Origin: an uncultured Chloroflexia bacterium
GTDB taxonomy: Bacteria > Chloroflexota > Anaerolineae > CG2-30-64-16
Length of the DNA: 64,000 nucleotides
Assembly: GCA_963810095.1 (NCBI GenBank)
Contig: CAWEMM010000009.1
Location: forward strand, 320,001-384,000
Direction: 5' to 3'
The translations under genes were made by a program, and so were the position numbers. Below the pieces are notes generated by a model. The model did no database searches, was not told the DNA's origin, and was given only the letters and a program-made list of their open reading frames with translations. Below, piece by piece: positions 7,267-61,456 of this stretch; positions within the stretch are counted from its first letter, which is position 1; every line of letters starts with the position of its first letter.

Positions 7267-7308
7267 TGTAAACTCCCACTTGACACGATAGTCATTCCGT
7301 AATATAAA
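7267..7308 (+). promoter_or_regulatory. Sigma70 promoter TTGACA-17-TATAAA with operator palindrome TGTAAACTCCCACTTGACA
   Basis: -35 at 7280-7285 and -10 at 7303-7308; the 19-bp motif is shared with other island promoters. Confidence 0.75.
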
Positions 7309-7575
7309 AGGCATGATCGTCCGCCTTGTGCGACGACGCTATGCCAACCACGAACCACGAACGAGAGACCGACTAAGCCATGCCCGCGGGTTGCGGACGC
7401 GGCGCCGTAGATGGCTGCGCTCGCGTCGCGGGCGCACGGCGGCCTTACCGGCGCCGAAACTGGCGTGGCCTGCTGCTGAAAATGCCCCACGTATCGCGGG
7501 GTCGTCAGCGGCGCCATCAGTGCCGGCAGTACGGGGCGGATGCCTTCGCAACCGGGCCATTCCGAGGGAGGTACC

Positions 7576-8328
7576 ATGAATCTGAATGGAAAGGTCGCTC
7601 TGGTCACCGGCGGAGCGGTCCGGGTTGGCCGGTCGATCTCGCTGGGGCTGGCGCGCGCCGGTGCAGACGTCGTCGTCAACTATAATTCTTCAGAGCGGCA
7701 AGCCGAGCAGACCGAGGCCGACATTGTCGCGCTGGGCCGCCGGGCAATGCGCTGCCAGGCGGACGTGTCGAAGGAAGCCCAGGTCCGGGCCATGATTGAC
7801 GCGACGATGGAGCGGTTCGGCCGGCTCGACGTCCTGATCAACAGCGCGTCCATCTGGAAAGGCACCCCTTGGCCCGACATCAGCGAGACCGAATGGGACC
7901 TCTTGAACGGCGTGGTGGCGAAAGGGTCATTCTTCTGCACGAAGGCCGCTGCGCCCCACTTGGCCGCCCACGGTGATGGCGCGATTGTCAACATCGTCGA
8001 TTTGTCGGCGTTCCGGCCCTTCGTCGGCTACCTGCCCCACTCCGCTGCTAAGGGTGCGCTGCTCAACATGACCTACGCGTTCGCGATCGAGATGGCACCT
8101 GAAGTCCGGGTCAATGCGGTCGCACCGGGGGCTGTTCTGGCGCCGCCCGGCCTCACAGAAGACGACCTCGCCATCGCGGCGCGTGCGACGCTTCTGCAAC
8201 GCTGGGGCGAGGCCGAAGATGTCACCAGGACCGTTGTCTTCCTGGTGGAGTCGCCCTACATCACGGGCGCCGTGATTCCCGTGGACGGGGGCGAGATGCT
8301 GGCCTGGCGCAGGCCCTGTTTCGACTGA
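7576..8328 (+). CDS. SDR oxidoreductase, pteridine reductase (PTR1/FolM)-like
   Basis: TGGAVRVGRSI, NIVD, HSAAK in place of YxxxK, RVNAVAPG, VDGG; GGAGG RBS. Confidence 0.8.
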   Translation: MNLNGKVALVTGGAVRVGRSISLGLARAGADVVVNYNSSERQAEQTEADIVALGRRAMRCQADVSKEAQVRAMIDATMERFGRLDVLINSASIWKGTPWPDISETEWDLLNGVVAKGSFFCTKAAAPHLAAHGDGAIVNIVDLSAFRPFVGYLPHSAAKGALLNMTYAFAIEMAPEVRVNAVAPGAVLAPPGLTEDDLAIAARATLLQRWGEAEDVTRTVVFLVESPYITGAVIPVDGGEMLAWRRPCFD

Positions 8329-8346
8329 GAACAAAGGATCGCGCGT

Positions 8347-9734
8347 ATGCAGATCATTATGCCCAAACTGGGCCTGACCATGACGCAAGGCACCATCACG
8401 GAGTGGCTGAAGTCGCCCGGCGACGCCGTCCGGGCCGAAGAGGCCCTGTGCGCGTACGAGACGGAGAAGGTCACGCTCGAGTTGGTCGCGCCGGAAGACG
8501 GCGTCCTGGTCGAGATCCTCGCACCTGCGGGCGCGACGGTGCCCGCCGGCGGGCCGGTGTGCGAGTTCCGAGTGGGCGCGGCCGTGGGCGCGGAGGCGAC
8601 CGCGACTGCACCCGTGGCAGCGCAGGCCGGTCCGGTCCTCGCGACGCCGAAGGCGCGTGCCCTGGCACGTGAGCGGGGGGTGGCGCTGGCTGCACTGAGC
8701 GGCAGCGGCCCGGCCGGCCGGATACAGGCGGCCGATGTGGCGGCCGTAGCCGGCGCAGGAGCGCGACCCGCAGGTGGCCCCTGCCGGCGGAGGCCCGCTC
8801 AAGGCGACGCCGCTTGGCCCGCAAGATGGCGGCCGCCGAAGGGATCGATCTGGCTGCCCTGGAGGGCACGGGTCCCGAAGGCACGGTGACGCGCGAAGAT
8901 GTTGAGCAGGCAGTGGTGCAACGGGGGGCGCATCCTTCGACTCCGGCCGGAACGGCCTACGCTCAGGATCTCTTGCCACAAGCGCAGCCACTGCATCCTG
9001 AGCGGAGCGCGTCCCACTGGGACGCCGCGCAGCCGAAGGATGTGACCACAGGCGAGACCGTCCTCCCACACTCCGTGCTCCGCCGCACCATCGCCGAGCG
9101 CATGAGCCAGTCCGCCTTCACGGCGCCGCACGTCACGCTGATGACCGAGGCCGACGCAGCCAATCTCGTTTCGGCCCGCGCACAACTGAACCAAGAGACG
9201 CCTCCCGATAAAAAGATCAGCTACAATGCCCTGTTTTCGGCGTTGGTTGCCAAGGCGCTCAAGGACTATCCGGGGCTCAATGCGCGCTGGGAGGCGGACG
9301 GCGTTCACCTGCTGGCCGATGTCAACATCGCGTTGGCGGTTGATACGGAACGCGGGCTGATGACGCCGGTCTTGCAGGGCGTCGATCGCCTTAACCTGCC
9401 GGCCGTGCAAGCAGGTTTCGCTGCGCTCGTGTCTCGGGCCCTGGCCGGCAGATCGCTGCCAGGCGACTTCGACGGCGGCACGTTCACCATCACGAACCTG
9501 GGCGCCAGCGACATCGACGGCTTCACGCCGATTATCAACCCGCCGCAGGCCGCCATCCTGGGCATCGGCAGGATCATTGAGAAGCCGGTCGCGCGCGACG
9601 GCGCGGTGGTGATTCGCCCCATGGTTACGTTGAGCCTAAGCTTCGACCACCGCATCGTCGACGGTGGGCCGGCGGGCAGGTTCCTGCAGCGAATCAAGCA
9701 ACTCGTGGAAAGGCCCATGGCGCTGCTCCTATGA
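8347..9734 (+). CDS. Dihydrolipoamide acyltransferase E2 (lipoyl domain, two E3-binding domains, catalytic domain; frameshift near 8790)
   Basis: MPKLGLTM...ETEKV lipoyl motif; GSGPAGRI and GTGPEG PSBD motifs; FTITNLG and SFDHRIVDG. Confidence 0.9.
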
Positions 9735-11083
9735 CTCATGTATCCTGATCGAGAACGGCACGCTGCTCTCGCCCGGTGCGTCCGGGGCTCACGGAAACCG
9801 TGGGCTGGGTGGCGCTCGAAGGCGAGAGCGTCGCCGCGATCGGTCCGGGGGCCGCGCCGCCAAGAGTGGCGCGGCTCGTGCCCAGCGGCTCATCGACGCC
9901 CGGCACATGGCCGTGCTGCCCGGCCTGGTCAACGCGCACACCCACCTCTCGCAGACGTTCCTGCGCGGGCTGGCCGACGACCGGCCGCTGTTGCGCTGGC
10001 TCAAGGAAGTGATCTGGCCGGCCCAGGCCGCGATGACGCCCGAGGACCAGCACCTGGCCGCGCTGCTCGGGCTCGTCGAGAACCTGCACTGCGGCGCGGC
10101 GACGGTGGTCCAGCACCACAAGCTGCCGGGTTACGAGTACGAGGACGCGGTGTGCCGCGCCGCGGCCCAGGTGGGCGTACGGATGGTGCTGGCGCGCGGC
10201 TGGGTCGACCTGGGGGCTTCGGGCGAAGGTATCGACGCCATCCTGGCGGACATGACCCACCTGCACGATGACATGGGGCGGTGCGAACGGCGGCCGGATC
10301 ACGGTTGCTTCCGGGCCGCTGACCCCCTGGCGCTGCTGCGACGACGCGATGCGCGAGGCCACGGCCCTGGCACGCAGCTGGGGCGCAGCGACCCACATTC
10401 ATGTAGCCGAGGCCCAGGACGAAATCGACCTGCTCGAGCAGCGATGCGGCCGGCGCCACATCGAGTGGCTGGCCGATCTCGGCTGCCTGGGGCCCGACAC
10501 GCAATTGGTCCACGCCGTCCACGTCACCGACGGCGAACTCGACCTCATTGCCGCAGTCTGGCGCACAGGTCGTCCATTGCCCGACGAGCAACATGTACCT
10601 GGCATCCGGCGCCGCGCCGGTCCGCAAGATGCTGGACCGGGGCATCCCCGTGTTCGCTCGGCACCGACGGATCCGGGTCCAACAACTCGCAGGACCTGCT
10701 CGAATGCGCGAAGGTCGCGGCCCTGCTGGCGAAGCACTCGACCGGCGACGCGCAGGCGCTGGTTCCCGCAGAGGTCGTGCCGATGCTGCTGCCCGTGGCG
10801 TCCGGTGGCCGGCGGTGGCTCGAAGTGGGCGGGCCGGCCGACGTGACCATCGTGGACCTGAACAATGCCCGCTGCCAGCCCGTTCACAGCGTCGCCTCCG
10901 CACTGGTGTACAACGCGGCCGGCCCCGATGTCCACACCGTGATTGTCGGCGGGCAGATCTTGCTGGACGCCGGGCGAGTGACGACGGTCGACGAGAGCTG
11001 CGCTCCTGGACGCGTGCCGGGCGGCTGCGGGCCGGCTGATGGCGCGGGCGGGAATCACACCGGTGAGGCACGAGAATGGCTGA
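9731..11083 (+). CDS. Amidohydrolase, SsnA/MTA-SAH deaminase (COG0402) family #1 (frameshifted)
   Basis: PGLVNAHTHLSQT, HIHVAE, HCPTSNMYLASG and GTDGSGSNNSQD spread across frames. Confidence 0.85.
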
Positions 11084-11832
11084 GTTGCTCCCGATGGCAA
11101 CGTCTCTGGTCGGCAAGGTCGCGTTGGTGACGGGCGGCGGCATGCGGGTCGGCCGCGCCATCTAGCCTGGCATTGGCCCAGCGAGGCGCGGCGGTCGCCT
11201 TCACCCGCCTGTCGTGCGAGGAGTGCGAGCGCGACCGCGGACGAAATCGCCGAGTGCGGCGTGGAGGCGATGGCGCTGGAGCTCGACGTAACGCGAGCCG
11301 GGCGCGCCGGCGCAGGTCGTGGAGCGGGTGATCGAGCGGTTCGGCCGGATCGACATCCTGGTGAACAACGCGTCGGTGTGGCTCCGCGCCCCGTTCCTCG
11401 AGATCACGCCCGCCGCGTGGCAGCAGGCGCTCGACGTCAATCTGACCGGTCCGTTCCTGGTCAGCCAGGCCGTCGGCGCCGCACATGCTGCGGCAGGGGG
11501 GCGGCCTGATCGTGAACATCACCGATCTCTCGGCCTACCAGACGTGGAAGGAGTACGCGCATCATGCGGCCAGCAAAGCCGGCCTGGTGGCCCTGAGCCG
11601 CGTCATGGCGGCCGAGCTTGCGCCGCACGTGCGCGTCAACGCGATCGCGCCCGGCACCGTGCTCCTGCCCGAGGGCGCGCCCGACGCCAAGCGCGCTTGG
11701 GCCGAGGGCAACTCGCTGCTCAAGCGCGTCGGCCACCCGGAAGACGTGGCGCGCACTGTGCTCTATCTCGTCGACAGCGACTTCGCCACCGGCGGCGTCT
11801 ATTTCATCGACGGCGGCCGAGCTTTGGTTTGA
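11076..11832 (+). CDS. SDR oxidoreductase, pteridine reductase-like #2 (frameshifted)
   Basis: KVALVTGGGMRVGRAI, LVNNASVW, NITD, HAASK, RVNAIAPG; paralog of the gene at 7576. Confidence 0.8.
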
Positions 11833-11930: not shown

Positions 11931-11955
11931 CTTGGGCCTTCCTAAGGAGATCAAT

Positions 11956-12949
11956 ATGGCTATTCAGGACTACTCACCGGAGTTGTTGCTCCGACTTTAC
12001 CGGCAGATGCTATTGGTGCGCGAGTTTGAACTGCGCGCCATTGCCGAGCGTCGTGCAGGGCTGATCCCCGGCTTCATCCACAGCTGTGTAGGCCAGGAAG
12101 CCACGGCTGCGGGCGCATGCGCCGCGCTCGAACCGCACGACGTGATCGCCAGCACCCACCGCGGCCACGGTCACCTCGTCGCCAAGGGTGGCGAGCCGAA
12201 GTACATGATGGCCGAACTAGCCGCTCGCACCACCGGCTACTGCGGCGGCAAGGGCGGCTCACTCCACATGACCGATTTCAACCTTGGCATCCTGGGGGCG
12301 AACGGCATCGTCGGCGGCGGAATCCCCATCGCGGTCGGCGCCGGCCTGGCCTTCCAGCAGCGCCGCGAGCCCCGGGTGGCCCTCTCCTTCTTCGGCGACG
12401 GCGCGACCAACGAAGGCTCCTTTCACGAGGCGCTGAACCTGGCCGGGTTGTGGAAGCTGCCCGTGGTCTTCTTCTGCGAGAACAACCTCTACGGCGAGGG
12501 CACGCCCCAGAACAAGCAGGCGCCGGTAGCCGATCTTGCCATCCGGGCAAGCAGCTACGCGATGCCGGGCGTGACCGTGGACGGTAACGACGTGTTGGCG
12601 GTGTACGAGGCGACGAAGGTCGCAGCCGACCGCGCACGTTCCGGCGGGGGCCCCACGCTGGTCGAGGGCAAGACCTACCGCCAGCGCGGCCACTACGAAG
12701 GGGACCCGATGGTCTATCGCAGCAAGGCCGAAATGGACGAGTGGAAGGGCCGGGATCCCGTCGTCTCGTTCCGCCGGCGGCTGTTGAGCGAGGCCGGCAT
12801 CGGCGAGGGCGAGGTCATCGCGCTGGAAAAGGACGTCCAGGCGCTGCTCAACGAGGCAGTGGCGTTTGCGGCATCCAGCCCCAAGCCCGCAGCCCGAGAC
12901 GGCGCTTGCCGGCGTTTACGGCGACACGCACGACGGACTGGTCTTCTAG
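11956..12949 (+). CDS. TPP-dependent dehydrogenase E1 alpha (AcoA/PdhA-like; frameshift near C-terminus)
   Basis: GFIHSCVGQEA, STHRGHGH, GGSLH, FFGDGA...ENN, KTYRQRGHYEGDP. Confidence 0.92.
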
Positions 12950-13048
12950 TCCGAGCGGAGTCGAGGCTTCTTCCGGCAGACCGCCCACAAGCGCCGCTCC
13001 AATGTCAGCAGCGAAGGCGGCCGTTCCACCAGGGGGATAAGGGTAGAC

Positions 13049-14035
13049 ATGAGCATCATCACTTACAGTCAAGCCATCTATAACGCCATGCGCGAGGAAA
13101 TGGACCGCGACCCCAACGTCATCCTCATTGGCGAGGATGTGGGCACATTTGGCGGCGTCTGGGGGGTCTCGGGCGACCTGGTCAAGATCTACGGCGAGGA
13201 TCGCGTGCGCGACACCCCGATCAGCGAGGCGGCCATCGTGGGTGCGGGCCTGGGCGCGGCGATGGTCGGTATGCGTCCCATTGTCGAGATCATGTTCGGC
13301 GACTTCCTGCCTGTCGCAGGCGATCAGCTGGTTAACCAGTTGGCGAAGGCCCGCTACATGAGTGGCGGGAAGGCGAGCGTCCCTGTGACCGTCCGCGTTA
13401 CCACGGGTGCGCCCGGCTCGTCGGCCGCGCAGCACTCGCAGTCGCCTGAGGGCTGGTACATGAATGTACCCGGCCTGAAGATCGCGGTGCCCGCCACGCC
13501 CGCCGATGCGAAGGGCCTGCTCAAAACCGCGCTCCGCGGAGAGGACCCCGTCCTCTTCTTCGAGCACAAGATGCTGTACGCGGTGAAGGGAGAGGTCCCC
13601 GACGATCCGGACTTCATGGTGCCGTTCGGCCAGGCGCAGATCAGCCGGCCTGGCAAGCGACCTGACCATCGTGGCGATCGGCGGGATGCTGCCGAAGGCG
13701 CTCGAAGCCGCGGGGATTCTGGCAAACGAGGGCATCGACGCCGAAGTCGTCGACCCCCGCACGCTTGTGCCGCTCGACAAGGAGACGATCGTCGCGTCGG
13801 TCAAGAAGACCAGCAGCTGTTGATCGTTCACGAGGCGCACAAGCGGCTGGGACCGGGCGCAGAGATTGCCGCGATGATCGCGGAAGAGGCGATCGGCTAC
13901 CTGGACGGCCCGATTGTGCGGGTGGCCGCCAAGAACGTGCCCTTGCCCTACAGCCCGGATCTCGAGAACACGGTGCTGCCAAGCTGCGAGGATATCGTCG
14001 AGAAGGCGCGCGGGCTGGCGCGCGGCAAGCTGTAG
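13049..14035 (+). CDS. TPP-dependent dehydrogenase E1 beta (internal compensating frameshifts)
   Basis: [32 protein letters not shown]. Confidence 0.92.
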
Positions 14036-14099: not shown

Positions 14100-15996
14100 A
14101 TGTCCAGAATGGCAGTCGTCGACCTGTCAACGGGCCGCATCACGATGAGCGAAACGCCGGCAGAACTGCTGCGCGACTACCTGGGAGGCCGCGGCCTCGG
14201 CGCCCGGCTGCTCTACGACCTGGTCGGTCCCGAGGTCGATCCGCTCGGTCCGGACAACTACCTGATCTTCACCGCCGCGCCGCTGGCCGGCACGCCCTGG
14301 CCGACTTCTGCGCGTATGCACGTCACCTTCAAGTCGCCGGCCACGGGCATCTATGGCTACGCCAACACGGGCGGGCCAGATCGTCGCGCGAGCTGCGCCA
14401 CGCGGGCTACGACGCGCTGCTCGTGACCGGCCGGGCGCCCGTAGCCGTCAGTCCTCCGGGTGGTCGACGACGAGATCACCATCGTCCCTGCGCCCGAGCT
14501 GTGGGGCCTGCAGACCGGCGCGGTGCACGATGCGCTGCTGGGCAGCGAGGGCAGCGCCGGCAAGGGACGCAACGGGTGTGTTGCCTGCATCGGTCCGGCC
14601 GGCGAGAACCTGGTCAAGATCGCCGCGATCATCAACGATCGCGGCCGGGCGGCGGCGCGCGGCGGGCCCGGCGCAGTGATGGGCAGCAAGAACCTGAAGG
14701 CGCTCCACGTCACGGCCACCAGCCGGCCGCCGACCAGCCCCGAGTTCCGCGAGGCCGCCAAAGAGACGGTCGGGAAGCTGCAAGGCCGATCCGCATCTCG
14801 ACGGTCTGCGCAAATGGGGCACGCTGGTGCTGATGGACTCGCAAGAACATCGGCGGCGATCAGCCGGCCAAGAACCACCAGTTCGTCCAGGTGCCCTACA
14901 TCAACAAAGTCAACGCCAAGGCGTTCGACCGCTACGTCGAGCAGCACCGGGGCTGCTATTCCTGCCCGATCCGCTGCAGCCGTGACTCGAAGGTCGCCGA
15001 AGGACCCTACCAGGTCGAAATGGAGGGCCCGGAGTACGAGACCACCAACGCCCTTGGCCCGATGTGTTGGGTCAGCGACCCTGAGGCCATCCTCTACGCC
15101 AACCGGCTGTGCAACGAGTACGGCCTGGATACCATCTCGACCGGCGTGACCGTCGCGTTTGCGCTGGAGCTGCGCGAGCGCGGGATCATCTGGCGACGAG
15201 CCGGACCTGGCGCTGGAATGGGGTAGCCCCGCGGCGCTGCACGGCTTGATCGAGCGGATCGCCCTGCGCCGCGGCATCGGCGACGTGCTTGCCGAGGGCA
15301 CGCGGCGGGCCGCGGAGATGATCGGCGGCGGCGCCGAGCGGTATGCGATGCAGGTCAAGGGGCTGGAACTGCCGCGCCAGGAGCCGCGCTTCGCCAAGGG
15401 CTTTGGCCTCGGCCACGCCACCTCGAACCGCGGCGCGGATCACCTTTACGGTATGCCGGCCATCGACCTGGCCGGCGCCTGGGATGTCGCGAACCGGCTG
15501 TTTGCCCCGGAGATCGTGCCCGAGCTGATGGATCCGGCCAACGAACGGTATAAGCCCGACATGGTCGTGTACGGCGAGCATTTCTGTGCGGTGACCGATA
15601 GCCTCGGCATCTGCAAGTTCAGCACGATCGAGGAGTGGGCGTTGTTCCCCGACGACCTGGCGCCCGGCGTGGCCGCGCTGTGGGGCCACCCGGTCACCGG
15701 CGCGGACCTGCTGGCCGTCGGCGAGCGGATCGTGAACCTGGAGCGCATGTACAACGTGCGCCAGGGCTTGTCGCGGGCAGACGACCAGTTGCCCAAGCGC
15801 TTCACGACCGAGCCCGCGCCCCTGTACGAGTATGAAGAGGACCCCGCGACCGGCCAGATGGTGCGCTCGGCCGAGCCCATCCGCGAGGGCCTGCTGCACG
15901 ACTTCGACGGGATGCTCGACCGGTACTACGATGCTGCGCGGCTGGACGCCCGATGGCAAGCCCACCGCGGAGACACTGAAGCGAGTCGGACTTTAG
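14100..15996 (+). CDS. Aldehyde:ferredoxin oxidoreductase (tungstopterin AOR family; several frameshifts)
   Basis: YLGGRGLG, KSPATG, CIGPAGEN, AARGGPGAVMGSKNLKA, CYSCPIRC, EGPEYET, GLDTIS, VKGLELP, TSNRGADH, DSLGICKF. Confidence 0.9.
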
Positions 15997-16091
15997 CGAC
16001 GTGTTTCGTTTACTTTTGATGTGATTTCTGATACACTTGCTCTCGGTGCATGCCAGCCAGGCACAGCGGCTATCACGTGCACGGGGGTGCG

Positions 16092-17816: not shown

Positions 17817-17841
17817 CGTCAAACGTAACGGAGAGCGACAA

Positions 17842-46632: not shown

Positions 46633-46645
46633 GAGGAGACGCCCC

Positions 46646-51788: not shown

Positions 51789-51796
51789 AAGAACGC

Positions 51797-51884
51797 GACG
51801 CTGATTGAACTGATTGAACTGATTCGCATGATCCCTTTTAGAGATCATGAAGATCAGTTCGATCGGTTCAATCAGCGTCCTATT
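51797..51884. repeat. Palindromic repeat family C
   Basis: GACGCTGATTGAACTGATTGAACTGATT...ATCAGTTCGATCGGTTCAATCAGCGTCCTATT. Confidence 0.82.
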
Positions 51885-52911: not shown

Positions 52912-52938
52912 GTTGGGGCGGGCTGCGCTCGCCCCAAC
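52912..52938. repeat. REP-like hairpin
   Basis: GTTGGGGCGGGC-TGC-GCTCGCCCCAAC between two co-directional genes. Confidence 0.45.
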
Positions 52939-52972
52939 AGCGTTTTGTCCGCGTCTTTGGGCAGGGGTAGGA

Positions 52973-54200: not shown

Positions 54201-54994
54201 CTATCCAAAGATCTGCTTGACCTTCTCCAGCGCCTCGGCCTCGGTGGTCGAGGGGTAGAATTCGAGCCCGATCAAGCCATCATACTTCAACTCGTGCAGC
54301 TTTTTGGCGATGTTCGGGAAATTGACCTCTCCCGTGCCCGGCTCCTGCCGGGTCGGGGCGTCGCCCACGTGCACGGCCTCGTAAAGCCCCGCATACTGCT
54401 CCAGCCCCCAGATCAGGTTCCCCCGTCGCGCTGCTGATGATAACAGTCAAAAGCCATGTGGAGCTTGGGATGGTCGAACCGGCGCACCCAGTCGGCCGCG
54501 AGATCGTGTTGGTGGACGAGGATGCCGCCCTTGATGTGAAACTCGTTCAGGGCCTCCACCCACACCTTCACCGGGGTCTGCTCGACGAGCTTGAGGATGC
54601 GCTCGGTCTGCTTCAGGCAGTTGGCGTACTGCTCGGCAGGGGTGAAGTTCGAGGACAGCCGCCGGGTGATCGTCCGGCCGTCGACAAAGTCGACCTGGTT
54701 CGAGAAGAGGAACAGGTACTGGACGCCGTACTGGCAGGCCATGTCCAGGCTTTCGGCCCACGTGCGATAGGTCAGCTCGTTGTCGCCGGGATCGGCGAAA
54801 GAGCCCATCTCGTCGTCGAAGGTCGAGTTGATGACGGCCCCCAGGCGGCGGCATTCGGACGCGATCTCGGCCATGGGCTGGCTGCGCCACGACCAGGCAT
54901 CCACCCGCTTGATCCCCAGCTTGCAGATCGGCTCCACCCGCTCGACCATCGGCCGGTCGGTGAACCAGAAATCCAGGTAACCCGTGAACTCCAT
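54201..54994 (-). CDS. Hyi-family TIM barrel #2 (frameshift near 54420)
   Basis: MEFTGYLDFWF... closely similar to 30721-31527; EPGTGEVNF, GLEFYP. Confidence 0.87.
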
Positions 54995-55021
54995 TGTCGT
55001 GCTCCTTCCGAGTGACGCCTT

Positions 55022-55096
55022 AACACAAAGGCACAAAGACACGAAGACAGTGAAACACGAACGAGCTGACGTACTTCCTTTGTGTCTTTGTGGTGA
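55022..55096. repeat. Palindromic repeat family B
   Basis: AACACAAAGGCACAAAGACACGAAG...CCTTTGTGTCTTTGTGGTGA. Confidence 0.78.
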
Positions 55097-55099
55097 TCT

Positions 55100-56125
55100 C
55101 TATACTAGGCGGTGCCGCAACTCGCCGCCGCGCAGGATGGCTTCGATGTTGACGTAATCCCCCGCACGCATCGCGCCGGTCAGGCGGATCGCGCCCGCGG
55201 CAACGTGCGGCGTCAGGATGAGGTTGACCATCGGGTCGCGCGCGAGCGCCAGCAGCGGGTTATCGGGCTGTACCGGCTCCCAGGTGAAGCCGTCGACTGC
55301 GGCGCCACCGAGGTGTCGGGACCGCACGGCCTCGGCCAACGCGTTCTCGTCCACCGTGCCGCTGCCGCCGGTCTGGATGAAGAGGCTGCCCGGCTTCATG
55401 CAATTGAAGAACTCGGCATTGATGGATTCCTCCGCGCCAGGCAGGAGCGGCAGCAGCGCGATGACCACGTCGCAGCTCGCGGCCAGCTCATCTTTGCTGA
55501 CATAATGCAGGCCGAATTGCTGCTCGGCGACGGTGGGCAACTGGCGCCGCTTGTTGTACAGGACCGTGGACCCGAAGGGCTTGAGCCGGATCGCGAGCTC
55601 CAGGCCGATCTCGCCGAAGCCCAGGATGCCTACCTTCTTGTCCATGATCCCGCCGATGTCCTCGCGTCGCGCCCAGTTGTAGGCGAAGTAGTCTTCGTCG
55701 CACTTACGGGGAGGCGTGCCCCAGTCGTCGCCGTCCTCTGAGATCTTCATCAGCTCGCGCACCCGCTTGACCAGTCCCAGCATTTGCAGGAAGACATGCT
55801 CGGCCACGAGCTGGCATGTCTGCACCGGCAGGCAGCAAACGGGGATGCCCGCCGCCTGGGCCGCGGCGAGGTCCAGGTCCCAGGTCTGAATGCCCAACCG
55901 CTGGATCAGCCGCAGATTCTTGCCGGCCGCGATCATGTCCGCGTCGACCACACCCGTACGCTCGGAGATGAAGAACTCCATTTCGGGCAGGAGTGCGAGA
56001 ATCTCTTCCTTGCTCGGGTCGCGGCGCATCACTACGTCCAGCTCGGCCGGCGCGCCCTCGAGCGCCCACTGCTGCTGCTGCTGGCCGCGCTGGGTGACGA
56101 ATAGGATGTGGTGTTTGAGATCCAC
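55100..56125 (-). CDS. D-2-hydroxyacid dehydrogenase-like protein #2
   Basis: GILGFGEIG, MKPGS, AVDGFTWEP, LILTPHVAA; GTG start with GGAGG RBS. Confidence 0.85.
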   Translation of the reverse strand: MDLKHHILFVTQRGQQQQQWALEGAPAELDVVMRRDPSKEEILALLPEMEFFISERTGVVDADMIAAGKNLRLIQRLGIQTWDLDLAAAQAAGIPVCCLPVQTCQLVAEHVFLQMLGLVKRVRELMKISEDGDDWGTPPRKCDEDYFAYNWARREDIGGIMDKKVGILGFGEIGLELAIRLKPFGSTVLYNKRRQLPTVAEQQFGLHYVSKDELAASCDVVIALLPLLPGAEESINAEFFNCMKPGSLFIQTGGSGTVDENALAEAVRSRHLGGAAVDGFTWEPVQPDNPLLALARDPMVNLILTPHVAAGAIRLTGAMRAGDYVNIEAILRGGELRHRLV

Positions 56126-56165
56126 TGCTGACCTCCATAGTATCAGGCGCGTAGCCCGCAACGCT

Positions 56166-57659
56166 CTAGACGAGCGACGTCCAGACGGCCTTGACCTCGG
56201 TGTAGGCCTCGATAACTTCAAGCCCATTGTCGCGGCCGTAACCGCTGCCTTTGAAACCGCCAAAGGGCGATGCCGGGTCGAAGCGGTCATAGGTGTTGAC
56301 CCAGACCACGCCCGCCTTGACCGCCGCCGCAACCCGGTGCGCGCGGGCCACATCGCGGGTCCAGACGCCGGCCGCCAGCCCGTAGGTCGTGTCGTTCGCC
56401 CGGGTGATGACTTCCTGCTCGGTTTCGAACGGCAAGACCGGTACGACAGGCCCGAAGATCTCCTCGCGCGCCACCGTCATATCGTCGCGCACCCCGGTGA
56501 GGATGGCCGGCTCCATGTAGCAGCCGCCCGCGTACTCGCCCTCGGTCAGCCGCCGGCCGCCGTGCCACAGCGTCGCGCCCTGGTCCAGCCCGCCCTGCAG
56601 GTAGCCCTGGATCGAGTCGAGCTGGCTGGGGTGGATGATCGGGCCAATGTCGGTCGACAGGTCGAAGGCGTCGCCGATGCGAGCGGCTTTGACCGTCGCC
56701 GTCAGCTTCTCGAGCACCTGGTCGTAGACGGGCTTCTGCACAAACAAGCGCGCGCCTGCGACACAGCTCTGGCCGGTGAAACCAAAGCCCGCATTGAACG
56801 CGCCGCGCACGGCCGCATCGACGTCGGCATCGGCAAAGATGATGTTGGGCGCCTTGCTGCCCAGCTCGAGCGCCAGCCGCTTGAGGTTCCCGGCCGACGC
56901 CTTGATGATGCCGCGGCCCACCGCAGTGGAGCCCGTGAACTGGACCTTGTTGATGCCGTCGTGTTCGGCCAGCGCCGACCCGATCACCGGGCCGGGGCCG
57001 GTCAGGACATTGACCGCACCTTCGGGGAAGCCGGCTTCCTGGATCAGCTCGGCTAGCCGGATGATCGGCAGCGAGGCCCACTGGGCGGGCTTCAGGATGA
57101 CGGTGTTGCCGCACGCCAGCGCGGGTCCCATCTTCTGCACCGCATGGATCAGCGGGTAGTTCCAGGGGATAATGATCGCGACGACGCCCAACGGCTCGCG
57201 GCGGGTGTACACGAAATGGTCGAGCGCGCCGATCGACGGGGTATAGCCCGCAATCTTGCCGGGCCAACCCGAATAGTGGTAGGCCAGCCGAGTGGCGACG
57301 CGGGTGTCGATCATGCGGGTCTTCTTGAGCGGCTTGCCGTTGTCCAGCGATTCGATCTCGGCCAGTTCGCCCGCATGTGCGGTCATCAGGTCGCCCAGCT
57401 TGCGCAGGCAGGCCTCCCGGTCGCCCGGCGCCATCTTGCCCCAGCTCGTCTCAAATGCCTTGCGCGCCGCTGCGACGGCAGCTTCAACCTCGGGCACGCC
57501 GGCCTGCGCCAGCTCGGCCAGGCATGCGCCGTCGGAGGGGTTGTCGGTTCTGAAATGCCCGCCCGACGCCGCGTCCACCCACTGACCGCCGACGAACAGC
57601 TTGAACGGCGAACGTGCGAGGAATTGCTGCGTGGCCAGGCTGATCGGTTCCTTTGCCAT
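56166..57659 (-). CDS. NAD(P)-dependent aldehyde dehydrogenase
   Basis: IIPWNYP, LKPA, FTGST, LELGSK, GQSCVAG, EEIFGPV, FGGFKGSG; own GGAGG RBS. Confidence 0.93.
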   Translation of the reverse strand: MAKEPISLATQQFLARSPFKLFVGGQWVDAASGGHFRTDNPSDGACLAELAQAGVPEVEAAVAAARKAFETSWGKMAPGDREACLRKLGDLMTAHAGELAEIESLDNGKPLKKTRMIDTRVATRLAYHYSGWPGKIAGYTPSIGALDHFVYTRREPLGVVAIIIPWNYPLIHAVQKMGPALACGNTVILKPAQWASLPIIRLAELIQEAGFPEGAVNVLTGPGPVIGSALAEHDGINKVQFTGSTAVGRGIIKASAGNLKRLALELGSKAPNIIFADADVDAAVRGAFNAGFGFTGQSCVAGARLFVQKPVYDQVLEKLTATVKAARIGDAFDLSTDIGPIIHPSQLDSIQGYLQGGLDQGATLWHGGRRLTEGEYAGGCYMEPAILTGVRDDMTVAREEIFGPVVPVLPFETEQEVITRANDTTYGLAAGVWTRDVARAHRVAAAVKAGVVWVNTYDRFDPASPFGGFKGSGYGRDNGLEVIEAYTEVKAVWTSLV

Positions 57660-57676
57660 GTGTCCTCCAAAAACCC

Positions 57677-58863
57677 CTAGCAGGGCAGGTTGAGCGGCTT
57701 CCGCATCTGCGCCAGGATCGCCGCACAGTCCTCTGCGCTCGCCGGTCGGGGATTGTTGCCGAGCAGCACCATCCGGGTCGTCTCTTCGGCGATCGCCGCC
57801 CAGTCCGGCTCGACGCCGTCGTGCGCTTGCGCCTCGGGCAGTTCGCTCAGGGTGGTCGGCAGGCCAAGCCCGTGCACGAACCGGCCCAATGCCGTCGACC
57901 AACTCGTCGTCGCTTGCTCCAGCCCCCAGCCCCATCACGGCCGCGAGCCGCCCGCGACGCTCGGCCGCGATCGCAGGCAGGTTGAACCGGAGGACGTAGG
58001 GCAGAAGCACCGCATTCGCCAGCCCGTGGTGCAGGTGCAGGTGGCCGGTCAGAGGGCCAGAGAGCGCATGGACAAGCCCCAGCCCGGCCTGATCCATGGC
58101 GATGCCGCCCCAGGCGGCCGCCAACATCATGTGCTGCCGCGCTTCCATATCGTTGCCGTCGACGGTCGCCCGCGGCAGCATGCGCCAGGTCGTCTCCAGC
58201 GCTGCCAGGGCCAGCTGATCGGTAAAGGGATTCGCCCGCTTGCCTGTGTAAGCCTCGATCGCATGCACGAAGGCGTCCATGCCCGTCGCCGCGGTCATGA
58301 GCGGCGGCAGCGAGCGGGTCAGCTCGGGGTCGAGGATGGCCGAGTGTGCGAACATGAGCGGGCTGAGCACGCCCTTCTTGAACGGGCGGTCGGGGTCGAC
58401 GATGACCATCACCTTGCTCACCTCGCTGCCCGTGCCCGCCGTGGTCGGCACCGCGAGCACCGGGAAGGCTCCGCTGGGTGATGGGCTTGCCGCCCCATTG
58501 GTAGTCCGGGTAGCTGCCGCCGTTCGCCACGAGCATGGCGATGGCTTTGGCGACGTCGATGGCGCTGCCGCCGCCCAACGCCACGAGGGCTTGGACCCCT
58601 TGCTCCAGGGCGATGGCGAGACCGGCATGCACTTCGGTGGTCGTGGGATTGGTGCTGACGTCGGAGAAGGCGAGCACCGTAAAGCCCGCTTCTTGCAGCG
58701 CGGCGCAAAACCGTTCGGGCCAGCCAAGTTGGGCCAGGCCCCGATCGCTGACGAGAAGCACCCGCATCGCGCCAAGCGCTTTGAGCTGCGTCTTCAGCGC
58801 TTCGACCGCGGGCTGCCCGAAAAGCACCTGCGTGGGCAGCGTGAAAGCAAATGCTGAGAGCAT
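57677..58863 (-). CDS. Iron-containing alcohol dehydrogenase (two frameshifts)
   Basis: ALGGGSAIDVAK, VPTTAGTGSE, DAFVHAIEAY, HALS, HHG. Confidence 0.9.
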
Positions 58864-58893
58864 CGTTCCTCCTCGCTGAGGGTGTGAATCAGC

Positions 58894-60315
58894 CTAATCT
58901 TCGGCCCCAACCGCCATGTCTGCCAATGCGACGGGGTGGATCGGCGGGCGGGGTGTGAAGATCCCGGTCGCATGACGCGAGGCAAGATAGTCCTCGCGCA
59001 GGCCGGCCTCACGCATCAGGATGCGGGCGGCCAACTCGCCACAGATCCGGCCCTGGCAATTGCCCATGCCCAGGCGGGTGAGGGCTTTCAGTTCCGTCGT
59101 CGAGCGGACACCGTCGGCTGCGGCCGCCCGGATGTCTCCCGCGGTCACTTCCTCGCACCGGCAGATGATCGTGTCTTCGTGGGCGAGCTCGAAGATGCCG
59201 GGACCCGGGGTGTAGAACTGCCCGAGCATGGCCGCGAAGCGACGCTCGCGGCGCAACGGGCCCTTCAGACGGTCCACCTTCTGCTGCACCTGCTCGGGGG
59301 CGAGGCGGCCGAGCGACCCGGCGGCCGAATACCCCGCCACCTGCCCTTCCAGCGCGGAGAGCGCGGCGCCGCCGATGCCCGCACCGTCGCCGGCCATGTA
59401 GACGCGGCCGAGCGAGGTCTGCATATTCTCGTCGCGCACCGGCACGTAGCCGCCCCGACGCAGGTCGTACTCGTGCGCGCACCCCAGCAGCCGGCTCAAC
59501 TCGGTGGACGGGATGAAGCCGTAGCCCAGGAGGATCGTGTCGGCCTTGACGACTTGCTCGCTGCCCTTCACCGGCCGCCACGTCTCGTCTAGCCGAGCGA
59601 TCACTGCCTCTTCAACCTGGTCCGCGCCCCGCGCTTCGACCACGGCCCAACCGAACCGGTACGGCACGCCGCGGAGCGCTCGCAGGTAGCTCCAGCCTTC
59701 GCGCACCCGGTCCCACTGCCCCCACATGGCGGCAGCCTGGCGCACGTTCCGCCGGCCCATCGAAGAACCTTCCAGGATGGCGGCAACTTCTGCACCCGCA
59801 CGCACGAGGGACGCGGCAACTGCAAGTTGCAGCGGGCCTGTGCCCGACAGGAGTACCCTGCGACCCGCCAGCACCCGCTGATTCTTCAGGAGGGTCTGTG
59901 CTGCGCCGGCGGTCATCACGCCTGGCAGCGTCCAGCCGGGGAAAGCGACCGGGCGGTCGTATGCGCCGGTCGCGAGGATCAGGGCCTCCGTCGACAGGGC
60001 GGGCGGCGAAGACGGGCCGCTGAGGGCCACCTCCCAGCAGCCCCCCGCAGGGGCCGGGAACGTGCCCCAGACCGTGGTCTCCGAAAGGACCCGGACCTTG
60101 GCATCGCGCAGTTTGCTCATGAGCGAGACGGCCGCGACCTGGTGGTCCGTGCGGTCGTCTGCCCGAAAAGCGGCAGGCAGCTGCCGGAAGTATTGGCCCC
60201 CGGGGCGGGCATAACCGTCGACCAGGACGACCTGTGCGCCGGACTCTGCGGCTGCCACAGCAGCGTTGATGCCCGCAGGCCCTGCGCCGATGACGACGAC
60301 TTCCACCTGTTCCAT
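58894..60315 (-). CDS. FAD/NAD(P)-binding oxidoreductase with BFD-like [2Fe-2S] (HcnB/OoxA/proline-dehydrogenase alpha type)
   Basis: IGAGPAG, ATGAYDRPVAFPGWTLPGV, AGDGAGI, ICRCEEV, GMGNCQGRICG, PRPP. Confidence 0.9.
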   Translation of the reverse strand: MEQVEVVVIGAGPAGINAAVAAAESGAQVVLVDGYARPGGQYFRQLPAAFRADDRTDHQVAAVSLMSKLRDAKVRVLSETTVWGTFPAPAGGCWEVALSGPSSPPALSTEALILATGAYDRPVAFPGWTLPGVMTAGAAQTLLKNQRVLAGRRVLLSGTGPLQLAVAASLVRAGAEVAAILEGSSMGRRNVRQAAAMWGQWDRVREGWSYLRALRGVPYRFGWAVVEARGADQVEEAVIARLDETWRPVKGSEQVVKADTILLGYGFIPSTELSRLLGCAHEYDLRRGGYVPVRDENMQTSLGRVYMAGDGAGIGGAALSALEGQVAGYSAAGSLGRLAPEQVQQKVDRLKGPLRRERRFAAMLGQFYTPGPGIFELAHEDTIICRCEEVTAGDIRAAAADGVRSTTELKALTRLGMGNCQGRICGELAARILMREAGLREDYLASRHATGIFTPRPPIHPVALADMAVGAED

Positions 60316-60320
60316 CGCTA

Positions 60321-60617
60321 TCACCCCGCTCGCGTCTCGATGGCCATGCCGGGGACCAGGGTCGTCATGCACGCCCGCAGGTTGGGCACGCCGTCGATGG
60401 TGACCAGGCAGTCGTAACAGATGCCGATGCCGCAGAAGATGCTCCGGGGCTGGCCGTTCTTGGGCGTGTGGCGGAAAGTGCGGATGCCCTCCGCGAGGAG
60501 CAGGGCAGCGACCGTCTCGCCGGAATAGGCGCTCACGGCGTGCCCGTCAACCTGCACGGTGATCGGCTCGCCGCGCTGGGCGAGGGGCAACTCGGGGTCG
60601 GATTGGGTGACTCGCAT
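60321..60617 (-). CDS. [2Fe-2S] subunit (HcnA/sarcosine-oxidase-alpha N-terminal type)
   Basis: GETVAALL, FCGIGICYDCLV, RACMT. Confidence 0.9.
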   Translation of the reverse strand: MRVTQSDPELPLAQRGEPITVQVDGHAVSAYSGETVAALLLAEGIRTFRHTPKNGQPRSIFCGIGICYDCLVTIDGVPNLRACMTTLVPGMAIETRAG

Positions 60618-60700
60618 ACGAAGCCTCCGGTGGCATTCATGGCGGCCGGTCCAGGTGTGGTGCTAGTCAGGAGCGTGCTCGGCGTAAATCGCCAACATGG

Positions 60701-60742
60701 ATGGTATCACGGGGTCCGAGAAGTGTCAACTGCCAGTTGACA
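60701..60742 (-). promoter_or_regulatory. Promoter TTGACA-17-TACCAT overlapped by the perfect palindrome TGTCAACTG-C-CAGTTGACA (60724-60742)
   Basis: Read directly from the sequence; there is no divergent gene here. Confidence 0.78.
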
Positions 60743-60769
60743 CCGTTCACTCGTTGTAGGCGACCTAGA

Positions 60770-61336
60770 TCAGTTACTCGCCCGGGCGATGGCCGAAATG
60801 TAGTCTGCGGAAGTGTCGCCCAGGGCCCGGATGTTCTCCAGGTAGCGGTTCTCCAGATACATGCAGTCCCCGGCCCGTAGCTCATAGATCTTACCGGCGA
60901 GCGTGATCTCGACGGTGCCCGAGAGGACGACAATACACTCTTCGCCGGGGTCGCCCACCAACTGCTGAAGGGTGTAGCCTGCGGCCGGCTCGAGGCAGAC
61001 GCGGAACAGCACCATTTTGCGCGTGACCTGGGGCGTTAGCACCTCGTAACTGACGTGTGTGTCGGGGAAGACCAGGCGACCACGGGTCTCGGCGCGCACG
61101 ACAAGGTTGTCGGCCGACGTATCGGCCAGGAGGCGCGGCAGCGCGATCTTGAGCGCGTTGGCTATGCTGAGGGCCGAGGCGAGGGTCGGGTTGGCCCGGC
61201 CGCGTTCGAGGTTGCTCAGGAACGTTGCGCTCAAGTTCGTCAGTTCCGCCAGGTCGCGCAGGCTGAGGCCAAGCTCCTGTCGCCGTTCCTTGATGCGCTC
61301 GCCGAAATGAGCGTAATCCTCGGAAAATTCGTCCAT
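60770..61336 (-). CDS. XRE-family HTH plus cupin transcriptional regulator
   Basis: GERIKERRQELGLSLRDLA...LSNLERG..NPTL HTH; EECIVVLSG and AGDCMY cupin. Confidence 0.92.
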   Translation of the reverse strand: MDEFSEDYAHFGERIKERRQELGLSLRDLAELTNLSATFLSNLERGRANPTLASALSIANALKIALPRLLADTSADNLVVRAETRGRLVFPDTHVSYEVLTPQVTRKMVLFRVCLEPAAGYTLQQLVGDPGEECIVVLSGTVEITLAGKIYELRAGDCMYLENRYLENIRALGDTSADYISAIARASN

Positions 61337-61414
61337 GTCATCGTCCTTCGCAATGCAGCATCGCTAAGTCACGAATGCCGCCAATTACGTGTAGTTGCAA
61401 TTCTGTATGTGAGA

Positions 61415-61456
61415 ATCATACCAGACACTGCACGATTCGTCAACCACGAGTTTGTA
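61415..61456 (-). promoter_or_regulatory. Regulator promoter TTGACG-17-TATGAT with a degenerate operator half-site
   Basis: Minus strand TTGACG AATCGTGCAGTGTCTGG TATGAT; CGTCAACCACGAGTTTGTA resembles the island motif. Confidence 0.55.

Follow-up and report, generated by a model that had tools for sequence, protein, structure and literature searches.

A putative N-heterocycle catabolic regulon of an uncultured Chloroflexia bacterium and its widespread SDR-Mch-like-E1-E2 module

The DNA stretch of 64,000 nucleotides analyzed here, hereafter the window, belongs to the metagenome-assembled genome of an uncultured Chloroflexia bacterium (class Anaerolineae of the Chloroflexota; GCA_963810095.1, contig CAWEMM010000009.1, positions 320,001 to 384,000; C9:320001-384000 when the contigs of this genome are numbered); coordinates without a contig number are those of the window. 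Its region 7267-61456 is best explained as an island of about 45 genes in about eight transcription units (TUs), which probably constitutes a regulon for importing and dismantling a purine- or pteridine-type N-heterocycle without oxygenases, all reactions being predicted from sequence. The novel part of the island is a module formed by a short-chain dehydrogenase/reductase (SDR), a protein resembling methenyl-tetrahydromethanopterin (methenyl-H4MPT) cyclohydrolase (Mch), and the E1 alpha, E1 beta and E2 components of a thiamine pyrophosphate (TPP)/lipoyl complex; this module is widespread and its chemistry is undescribed. The regulon connects enzymes of the reductive purine route with an “Mch” and TPP/lipoyl module that is conserved in many anaerobes, including human-gut Clostridia, and that is misannotated. 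To our knowledge, anaerobic purine breakdown was worked out only in 2025, and we know of no account of the fate of pterins without oxygen. A preliminary description of the window had proposed a multi-operon, apparently co-regulated region for N-heterocycle catabolism; the gene families, all of which were found at their places with Pfam and NCBIfam, and the statistics of a promoter palindrome support this proposal.

The intergenic regions of the window share the 19-bp palindrome TGTMAA-N7-TTKACA, which is real and far above chance: the 6.13-Mb genome contains five exact copies, against 0.13 expected for independent, identically distributed bases, and four of the five are in the window (7267, 30595, 33960 and 60724). 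With up to one mismatch there are 11 genomic sites, five of them in the window (44061 is added), while two flank an operon on C1 with xanthine dehydrogenase (XDH) and Bmp ABC genes; a second mismatch adds a single window site, 9320, inside a coding region. A degenerate copy with three mismatches, at 61438-61456, is located upstream of the regulator gene and accounts for the end coordinate 61456 of the preliminary description. The five good window sites are all at TU starts, and a promoter scan of 29500-45500 gave five promoter-like sites, versus 1.6 ± 1.4 in shuffled sequence, three of which use palindrome halves as -35 box, in both directions at the second palindrome. The motif recurs in six loci of relatives with orthologs of the second Mch-like protein, Mch2 (L027/L039, which are one contig, L036, with two copies, L038, L040, L041 and L044), and was found neither in the other loci compared at that stage nor in 60 kb of G061:C29. 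The only regulator in the region is an HTH_3-cupin protein, homologs of which lie near the Mch-like genes of other Chloroflexota (Table 1); it has the same domain architecture as the PuuR-type repressors, and PuuR is its best NCBIfam match (48 bits versus a cutoff of 211); it is not an ortholog. From these data the simplest reading is that an XRE/cupin repressor of PuuR type would bind the palindrome, covering back-to-back -35 boxes, and would leave it on sensing the substrate or an intermediate.

The C1 operon (C1:119860-144974) contains xdhC-like, XDH Mo subunit and Bmp ABC genes between two palindromes (C1:137090, one mismatch; C1:140075, exact), and it probably belongs to the same regulon; a PTR1-like SDR, 53% identical to that of the window, and a GCV_T homolog are found nearby. 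A riboswitch search with Rfam at gathering thresholds gave nothing in the window and only two tRNAs in eight Firmicutes/Spirochaetes loci.

Conservation was studied with a profile of the Mch-like clade (clade A, see below), which retrieved 77 loci; these were mapped with queries from the window, from relatives and from Escherichia coli, and in every locus of 12 kb or more the genes up to 10 kb on either side of the Mch-like gene were tallied (Table 1), the other phyla being Firmicutes (including Clostridioides difficile), Spirochaetes and Fusobacteria. Conservation of the complete gene combination had been named in the preliminary description as a check: the full 54-kb combination is not conserved, with UbiD in 0/58 and aldehyde:ferredoxin oxidoreductase (AOR) in 1/58 Mch-centered loci, whereas a core of Mch-like, SDR, E1 alpha/beta, E2 and COG0402 genes is strongly conserved across phyla, and joins YgeW, YgeY, SsnA-like, HyuA and XDH genes in Chloroflexota and some Spirochaetes. 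Thus, UbiD and AOR are lineage-specific accessories, whereas the core modules are conserved and recombine.

Table 1. Gene families near Mch-like genes.
Family	Other phyla (n=38)	Chloroflexota (n=20)
E2	35/38	11/20
SDR	34/38	13/20
E1 alpha	33/38	13/20
E1 beta	33/38	13/20
COG0402	27/38	13/20
HTH_3-cupin regulator (counted in Chloroflexota only)		13/20
RibD_C-like	21/38	5/20
E3	21/38	0/20
Bmp/ABC	19/38	4/20
XDH Mo	15/38	6/20
NCS2	8/38	0/20
Aldolase	8/38	4/20
FGGY	7/38	5/20
HyuA	1/38	9/20
DAO	4/38	7/20
YgeW	3/38	4/20
YgeY	2/38	6/20
PydA-like	2/38	0/20
AOR	1/38	0/20
UbiD	0/38	0/20

According to Pfam, the operon of C. difficile comprises an NCS2 permease, XDH FeS and Mo subunits, SDR, Mch, E1 alpha, E1 beta, E2, COG0402, RibD_C-like and E3 genes. 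In Sphaerochaeta, RibD_C-like, URO-D-like, YgeY-like, SsnA-like, E3, SDR, Mch, E1 alpha, E1 beta, E2, XDH, PydA-like and YgeW-like genes follow on one strand, and this operon therefore unites the uric-acid-type module and the SDR-Mch-E1-E2 module. Two Mch paralogs are present in 24/58 Mch-centered loci. In the window, Mch-like genes and E1/E2 sets are likewise present twice; by Pfam, an E2 is encoded between Mch1 and E1 beta, so that each TPP set consists of E1 alpha, E1 beta and E2; the SDR-Mch-E1-E2 arrangement is limited to the TU6 set. Among the relatives, G007, of the same genus, is syntenic with the window at 45.3-61.3 kb, and the order SDR-Mch1-E2-E1 beta-E1 alpha is common to G011, G021 and G007. 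Orthologs of Mch2 with 75-100% identity were found in 12 loci, all from Chloroflexota, one being the G007 contig of the query itself; they are repeatedly flanked by a block [DAO-Fer2_4-SoxA-like]-Hyi-aldolase-FGGY and by another composed of SsnA-like-XDH-luciferase-like-YgeW-YgeY, with HyuA and the regulator nearby. Homologs of the window Hyi, aldolase, FGGY and Mch2 proteins, 54-79% identical to them, are also contained in a contig of a Treponemataceae metagenome-assembled genome (L120, CAYOIX010000020.1), a likeness that suggests a recent horizontal transfer or a mis-binned contig.

The Mch-like proteins are named Mch in databases because they pass the NCBI equivalog cutoff (TIGR03120, 228.8 bits): intact orthologs reach 273-301 bits (Mch2 of G007, 273; Mch1 of G011, 272.8), compared to 355-416 for canonical Chloroflexota sequences. 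With canonical Mch (PF02289; PDB 1QLM, 4GVQ) they have in common the full-length fold, as they align over the entire length with the Methanopyrus kandleri enzyme 1QLM (E 5e-70), and residues Arg183 and Glu186, which are invariant in 14 clade members and which we take to be the catalytic residues of Mch. However, they form a distinct clade, they carry a Gln in place of Glu140, they lack an H4MPT pathway context and their genes are found in catabolic operons next to an SDR and a TPP/lipoyl complex. In a quick maximum-likelihood tree of 59 sequences, a branch with an SH-aLRT of 100 splits the Mch-like clade A, which includes Mch1, Mch2, a third Chloroflexota paralog and a Desulfitibacter-like pair, from canonical Mch. 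Clade A (23 sequences) retains 34 of the 85 positions that are conserved at ≥90% among 22 canonical sequences; E140, found in 100% of the canonical sequences, is Gln in 23/23 of clade A. FTR (PF01913), the sole H4MPT marker searched, was not found in the genome, which is 88.5% complete, and H4MPT metabolism looks absent from it. An MCH-family gene is present in 9/61 related genomes (including the source genome, G000); the copies of the Chloroflexota G048 and G019, which served only as controls, fall in the canonical clade, have about 36% identity and are not syntenic with the window. We conclude that the Mch-like proteins probably are functional cyclohydrolases whose substrate is a cyclic formamidine different from methenyl-H4MPT; the E140Q signature separates these catabolic enzymes from true Mch, and its use would correct automatic annotation. 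Literature searches returned no paper on Mch homologs in catabolic operons, although supplements of the 2025 preprints cited below may show such neighbors; the available passages of PMC11448449 mention neither cyclohydrolase nor acetoin. No locus was found in a locus search with the Desulfitibacter-like Mch protein.

As in acetoin and pyruvate dehydrogenase (PDH) complexes, the window has sets of E1 alpha, E1 beta and lipoyl E2 domains, each twice. E1 beta b scores 350 bits, above the PDH E1 beta subfamily cutoff of 321, and E1 alpha 345 bits, below the PDH equivalog cutoff of 394; unlike those complexes, the sets are embedded in heterocycle operons and no E3 is present in the window, a homolog being located at C6:1580078-1581460. 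At C7:435330-438071 and C12:24107-31328, Amidohydro_2 and SDR genes are interspersed with additional E1 alpha/beta(/E2) sets, and TPP/lipoyl complexes appear to be used repeatedly in the catabolic clusters of this organism.

The block at 16.4-29.6 kb resembles the reductive uric-acid pathway. In the available text of Li et al. (10.1101/2025.05.19.654654) this pathway is composed of XdhD(-YgfM), YgfK or the C. difficile PydA-type UacX, SsnA, HyuA, YgeY, YgeW together with YqeA or UacY, and YgeX; SsnA is its marker enzyme, Chloroflexota SsnA neighborhoods are counted as uricolytic variants, and an F420-type luciferase-family reductase is noted beside SsnA in this phylum. The same route is reported in the available text of Liu et al. 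(10.1101/2025.04.24.650524). The window carries, on one strand, XDH, a PydA/UacX-type Fe-S reductase, SsnA-like, HyuA, YgeY and YgeW genes, the PydA-type reductase replacing YgfK as described for C. difficile; it differs in having neither YgeX nor YqeA, in an XDH made of three separate subunits, and in the co-regulation of the block with Mch-like, E1/E2, amine-dehydrogenase, sugar-type, PTR1-like, AOR and UbiD genes, on which the available text of both papers is silent. The HyuA-like protein of the window is 42% identical to E. coli HyuA and is the best match in the genome (tblastn), while the two proteins with DHO_dh and 4Fe-4S domains have PreA as best or second-best NCBIfam match, below cutoff. 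In the Chloroflexota relatives, a luciferase-family protein in the equivalent position, whose best match is Mer (155 bits versus a cutoff of 276), is the F420-type reductase mentioned in the available text of Li et al. These features indicate that the block is a putative paralog of the reductive uric-acid pathway in its UacX (PydA-type) variant. The words cyclohydrolase, thiamine, acetoin and lipoyl do not occur in the available text of Li et al., nor the first three in that of Liu et al., although figure 1b/3 and the supplementary tables of the former and the supplements of the latter may show neighbors.

A canonical set was located on C6 by tblastn with E. coli K-12 proteins: ygfK (38%, full length), ssnA, ygeW, ygeY and yqeA; the SsnA copy at C6:1282566-1283824 is closer to the E. 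coli protein than that of the window, and the only carbamate kinase of the genome is at C6:1272980-1273903. This region (C6:1264695-1285679) encodes XDH, YgeY-like and YgeW-like proteins, the carbamate kinase, a PALP protein that is not YgeX (29.8 bits), the full-length YgfK homolog, a frameshifted SsnA homolog and further XDH subunits. YgeX was not detected in the whole 88.5%-complete genome, as TIGR01747 gave at most 29.8 bits versus a cutoff of 274 and tblastn with E. coli YgeX gave no match at 1e-8. The preliminary description had not seen ygeX or a full-length ygfK in the window, where both are indeed absent, and had regarded the cluster as non-standard; the gene set does exceed the standard purine cluster, but the part from xdh to the reductase is largely the UacX-type variant. 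Similarly, its view of an undescribed pathway holds for the SDR-Mch-like-E1-E2 module, which is new, but not for the xdh/ygeW/ygeY/hyuA/ssnA-like part, which matches the variant known from the 2025 preprints of Li et al. and Liu et al.

The classical pteridine route, cited in the preliminary description, has a candidate cluster of its own outside the window. As described in the available text of Doi, Maeda & Takaya 2025 (PMC12391406), cluster I of Cupriavidus sp. LA-1 encodes a pterin deaminase, a three-subunit Mo lumazine dehydrogenase, an alpha/beta isomerase of the Amidohydro_2 family making xanthine-8-carboxylate and a prFMN (UbiD) decarboxylase. Deaminase, three-subunit Mo hydroxylase and UbiD-family decarboxylase families are shared with the window; the defining 6,7-dihydroxylumazine isomerase, an Amidohydro_2 pair, is missing from it (0/229 window ORFs by Pfam; five genomic matches, none in the window). 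A candidate for this route is the region C6:824122-835031, where an adjacent Amidohydro_2 pair (824122-825717) is followed by a UbiD paralog, 33% identical to the window UbiD, by XDH FAD/FeS/Mo genes and by a Bmp ABC system, a gene set that matches the Cupriavidus lumazine/pterin cluster; UbiX is encoded at C6:1522260. Since canonical urate and Cupriavidus-type lumazine clusters are found elsewhere in the genome, the island probably serves a substrate other than urate or lumazine, which narrows the search to compounds outside those two pathways.

For this substrate our tentative choice is a pteridine, either reduced or with a side chain, from which intermediates of the purine or diaminouracil type would be formed; a non-urate purine is possible, if somewhat doubtful, and other heterocycles take the remainder. 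In favor of a pteridine are the two PTR1/FolM-like SDRs, whose best NCBIfam match is pteridine reductase NF006598 (210 bits versus 288) and which both have the TGxxxRxG motif, presumably the cofactor motif of PTR1/FolM pteridine reductases; in the PDB, FolM and PTR2 structures are merely mid-list matches. The Mch- and Mer-like folds point in the same direction, as do the RibD_C/DHFR-fold reductases that occupy the corresponding position in other phyla. In pterins of the neopterin or biopterin type, C6, C7 and the side-chain carbons would be suitable targets for the amine dehydrogenase and the pentulose-type kinase, aldolase and isomerase, while a ring aldehyde could be handled by AOR or the aldehyde dehydrogenase (ALDH) and a ring carboxylate by UbiD. 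A substituted pterin with a polyol side chain is a plausible candidate substrate. Scavenging of methanopterin or folate is speculative; glycosidase, phosphodiesterase and aryl-ring genes did not turn up.

The purine-leaning evidence consists of nucleobase-type transporters and of paralogous uricolytic enzymes, in neighborhoods classed as uricolytic in the available text of Li et al. (10.1101/2025.05.19.654654). On this basis the island could be the Chloroflexota version of the reductive uric-acid/purine pathway, acting on urate, xanthine, some other common purine such as hypoxanthine or adenine, or a nucleoside; the Mch-like enzymes would open a formamidine-level C2-H or C8-H, and E1/E2 would oxidize a C3 2-oxo-acid end product instead of YgeX. 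The association of SsnA-like, HyuA, YgeY, YgeW, PydA-like and XDH genes with Mch-like genes in operons, the transporters (Bmp/PnrA in 19/38 and NCS2 in 8/38 loci) and the absence of YgeX agree with it, and the frequent pairs of Mch paralogs would fit two CH-type ring carbons. Among PDB structures, the Bmp binding protein best matches 7x0r “Lbp”; its relatives there also include basic membrane (lipo)proteins and a periplasmic binding protein for atrazine, which agree with a purine, as such proteins presumably bind purines or nucleosides. However, the canonical ygfK-ssnA-ygeW-ygeY-yqeA cluster already exists on C6, in C. difficile and Sphaerochaeta the true SsnA ortholog is encoded away from the Mch operon, and the PTR1-like and RibD_C/DHFR-fold reductases, the FGGY/aldolase/Hyi triad and the amine dehydrogenase would have no obvious role, which makes this explanation unlikely, albeit the best of the alternatives. 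The other PDB matches comprise uncharacterized amidohydrolases, atrazine chlorohydrolase and MTA/SAH deaminase for amidohydrolase D, whose intact G007 ortholog scores 382 bits against 5'-deoxyadenosine deaminase, under the cutoff of 522, and only weak matches (E about 1e-5) for the RibD_C-like protein, while the URO-D-like protein had no PDB sequence match; the PDB matches of these proteins and of the Bmp protein fix no substrate. Catabolism of creatinine, N-methylhydantoin and sarcosine, considered because of the deaminase, hydantoinase and sarcosine-oxidase-like genes, was rejected because it offers no role for the XDH, PydA-like, Mch-like, E1/E2 and sugar-type genes.

In the preferred reading of a regulon for a purine- or pteridine-type heterocycle, the compound would be imported via the Bmp-type ABC system and processed by several modules. 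In the first one, the Mo hydroxylase would adjust the ring oxo groups and the ferredoxin-type PydA/UacX-like reductase would dearomatize the ring; the SsnA-like and HyuA-like hydrolases would then open the urea-level rings, and YgeY and YgeW would strip the ureido groups, YgeW giving carbamoyl phosphate for the C6-encoded carbamate kinase. In the second, the Mch-like enzyme would hydrolyze, or in reverse close, a cyclic formamidine (N-CH=N) ring carbon, and the SDR and the TPP/lipoyl complex would convert the released alpha-hydroxy-ketone or 2-oxo fragment to acyl-CoA. A third module, with the DAO/SoxA-like/Fer2_4 amine dehydrogenase, would cleave a C-N bond, the carbonyl product being processed by Fe-ADH, ALDH, 2-hydroxyacid dehydrogenase and Hyi-like protein; in a fourth, FGGY kinase, DhnA-type aldolase and Hyi-like isomerase would consume a sugar-like C4-C5 fragment. 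The two PTR1-like reductases, AOR and UbiD would be lineage-specific accessories. A bolder possibility, which we consider doubtful, is that the SDR-Mch-like-E1-E2 module carries out a new reaction type, in which the Mch fold would open or (Traube direction) close the formamidine-level ring carbon and the acetoin/PDH-like complex would capture adjacent carbons of the ring or side chain as acyl-CoA; in its concrete form, this would be an oxygen-independent, energy-conserving contraction of a pteridine to a purine ring, replacing the aerobic isomerase and UbiD route and feeding the reductive purine module. If this were true, the pathway would extend from Chloroflexota of soils to Clostridia of the gut, among them C. 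difficile, and the window would give its regulator, its operator and the largest co-regulated set of partner enzymes seen so far. The candidate repressor with its 19-bp operator, and the binding protein for ligand screening, provide testable handles.

Several findings weigh against a single regulon and pathway of this kind. The tallies overstate independence, because the loci were picked by Mch likeness and several come from related or the same genomes. A UbiD ortholog is present in one of five relatives' genomes (G061, in a second cluster with SsnA-like, E1 alpha/beta, YgeW, YgeY, SDR, Hyi, FGGY, aldolase, HyuA and E2 genes), and this, together with the UbiD and AOR counts, indicates that the island is a mosaic and not one fixed pathway; even in the syntenic stretch of G007, PydA-like 2 and 2-hydroxyacid dehydrogenase b are lacking. 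In the purine-type block, the SsnA-like protein reaches 246 bits versus the TIGR03314 cutoff of 455.5, with 27% identity to E. coli SsnA; the YgeW-like protein, for which YgeW is the best NCBIfam match, 206 bits versus 453 on a frameshifted fragment; and the best homolog of E. coli XdhD is at C12:407528-409858 (40%), the window XDH being outside the top seven matches, partly through frameshifts. As the genome lacks YgeX, breakdown may lead to another C3 end product than in the published pathway. The transporters of the other phyla (NCS2, Bmp) point to a plain nucleobase over a pterin. Part of the recurrence of the palindrome is promoter consensus, since its TTGACA halves are also plain -35 boxes, and TU1, which is 22 kb long, may have internal promoters without palindrome. 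No RNA sequencing run containing the window was found in a run search.

The double nature of the half-sites leads to a further alternative, namely that unrelated operons are adjacent by chance and the palindrome is just two overlapping consensus -35 boxes, with no shared regulon or pathway. The coincidence of three of the five promoter-like sites with the halves, and a mosaic that differs even within the genus, are compatible with it; but the near restriction of exact copies to the window (four of five in 6.13 Mb), the retention of both halves at sites 1 and 5, which drive one direction only, the recurrence of the motif in loci of relatives where the HTH-cupin gene is present as well, and the rejoining of the modules in varying orders across many genomes make it quite improbable.

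Frame breaks, which seem to affect dozens of genes, raise the question of whether the island is intact. The source genome, in 16 contigs, has a window G+C of 63-70% throughout, which gives rise to many spurious ORFs; Pfam was run on all 229 window ORFs of ≥110 aa (122 + 107) and NCBIfam on 71, and leftovers were rescanned with Pfam. Proteins of relatives change frame at at least 26 places across the window, and AOR and the XDH Mo subunit are each broken into three to four frame pieces (Pfam). Short-read metagenome contigs, 90-99% alike, were compared over 13900-20400; the DNA runs matching the window share at most 0.08 of sampled words and were used solely for this indel comparison. All 12 indels listed, out of 36, correspond to one surplus base in the window and coincide with inferred break points (e.g., 15190, 18432, 18709); inside AOR, surplus single bases are at 14780, 14839 and 15190. 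A break of this kind likewise divides the essential rpoB gene (C14:146935-150808), whose last 137 profile positions are in a separate, second frame, while the relatives G007, G011 and G061 have intact orthologs of window genes. Because the listed indels are all surplus bases, rpoB is split too and the orthologs are intact, the frame breaks most likely result from erroneous single-base insertions in a long-read assembly; the rpoB split implies that such errors are genome-wide, and they probably depress the completeness estimate. The island genes were therefore treated as functional. That the island is a decaying relic with genuine pseudogenes is highly improbable, since the frame switches and the fragmented AOR and XDH genes on which it would be based are countered by the same surplus bases, by rpoB and by the orthologs, and 16 contigs with 88.5% completeness fit an error-prone long-read assembly. 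Finally, the assignment of the Mch-annotated genes to a C1 pathway as true methenyl-H4MPT cyclohydrolases, which the equivalog scores, the 1QLM alignment and the Arg/Glu pair might suggest, can be practically discounted in view of the missing FTR, the separate clade with E140Q and 51/85 relaxed positions, the non-syntenic canonical copies of G048 and G019, and the homologs that C. difficile, Pseudoflavonifractor, Spirochaetes and Fusobacteria carry in operons of the same type.

The features of the island are collected in Table 2, where the COG0402-type amidohydrolases number four (A, B, the SsnA-like protein and D); the genes before 7.2 kb and after 61.5 kb lie outside the region. Beyond the preliminary description, the annotation revealed a Fer2_4/SoxA-like/DAO set, Fe-ADH, ALDH, two 2-hydroxyacid dehydrogenases, two AP_endonuc_2 (Hyi-like) proteins, a saccharopine-dehydrogenase-like and a URO-D-like protein. 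Fer2_4, the SoxA-like flavoprotein and the two DAO proteins resemble what we take to be a heterotrimeric amine dehydrogenase.

Table 2. Genes and palindromes of the island (window coordinates).
Feature	Position	Strand	Basis or remark
Palindrome 1 TGTAAACTCCCACTTGACA	7267..7285		right half = TTGACA -35 box of TU1
PTR1/FolM-like SDR 1, TGGAVRVG motif	7540..8328	+	NF006598 best, 210 bits vs cutoff 288
E2 acyltransferase a, lipoyl + E3-binding + catalytic domains, frameshifted	8347..9734	+	Pfam, NCBIfam
COG0402-type amidohydrolase A, frameshifted	9664..11130	+	
PTR1/FolM-like SDR 2, TGGGMRVG motif, frameshifted	11076..11832	+	
TPP complex a: E1 alpha 11932-13083, E1 beta 13049-14035	11932..14035	+	
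AOR, four frame pieces	14100..16019	+	Pfam
ThiS/MoaD-like small protein	16037..16348	+	PF02597, E 1.9e-5
XDH family: FAD 16400-17282, 2Fe-2S 17276-17748, Mo ~17806-20317 (several frame pieces)	16400..20317	+	
YgeW-like carbamoyltransferase	20314..21400	+	39% identical to E. coli YgeW, residues 15-284
D-2-hydroxyacid dehydrogenase a, frameshifted	21500..22466	+	
COG0402-type amidohydrolase B, frameshifted	22467..23895	+	
YgeY-family M20 hydrolase	23915..25156	+	NF009555 342 bits > cutoff 321; 36% vs E. coli YgeY
HyuA-like D-hydantoinase/dihydropyrimidinase	25153..26550	+	TIGR02033 500 bits > cutoff 393
SsnA-like amidohydrolase	26758..28137	+	27% vs E. coli SsnA; below NCBIfam cutoff
PydA/PreA-like (UacX-type) DHOD-fold reductase 1, 4Fe-4S dicluster, frameshifted	28339..29645	+	
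Classical SDR 3 (TU2)	29790..30584	-	
Palindrome 2	30595..30613		halves = -35 boxes of divergent promoters
TU3: Hyi-like AP_endonuc_2 isomerase 1 (30721-31527), saccharopine-dehydrogenase-like (31524-32888)	30721..32888	+	
TU4: DAO-family FAD amine oxidoreductase 1, frameshifted	32726..33869	-	
Palindrome 3	33960..33978		exact copy
TU5: UbiD-family decarboxylase	33992..35473	+	TIGR00148 312 bits > cutoff 245
Distal TU6: FGGY kinase 35529-37115, DhnA/LsrF-type class I aldolase 37112-38032, classical SDR 4 38055-38819	35529..38819	-	
Mch-like cyclohydrolase 1, three frame pieces	38860..39804	-	
TPP complex b: E2 39865-40910, E1 beta 40911-42068, E1 alpha 42016-42860	39865..42860	-	
URO-D-like protein, first gene of TU6	42875..43937	-	weak Pfam match
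Palindrome 4	44061..44079		1 mismatch; left half = -35 box of minus-strand promoter
Bmp/PnrA-family ABC importer: binding protein 44327-~45385, two permeases, ATPase; frameshifted	44327..49175	+	
COG0402-type amidohydrolase D	49190..50550 (approx.)	+	
DAO-family FAD amine oxidoreductase 2	50639..51808	+	
Mch-like cyclohydrolase 2, one frameshift	51939..52893	+	
PydA/PreA-like DHOD-fold Fe-S reductase 2	52913..54133	+	
TU8: Hyi-like protein 2 54201-55042, 2-hydroxyacid dehydrogenase b 55100-56353, ALDH 56166-~57600, Fe-ADH ~57650-58863, SoxA-like Pyr_redox_2/BFD 58894-60372, Fer2_4 60321-60662	54201..60662	-	
Palindrome 5	60724..60742		perfect TGTCAAC..GTTGACA
HTH_3-cupin regulator (PuuR-like)	60770..61336	-	Pfam, NCBIfam

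Outside the regulon, at 305-7170, the window contains iolD (910 bits, above the cutoff of 715), iolB, an ADP-ribosylglycohydrolase, an FAA-hydrolase-family protein and a dienelactone hydrolase. A 60-bp tandem repeat (26608-26734; 2.1 copies, 88% matches) separates the hydantoinase and SsnA-like genes, and a perfect hairpin with a 20-bp stem and a T-rich tail (32680-32722), located at the meeting point of the saccharopine-dehydrogenase-like gene and the DAO gene convergent with it, probably acts as a terminator in both directions.

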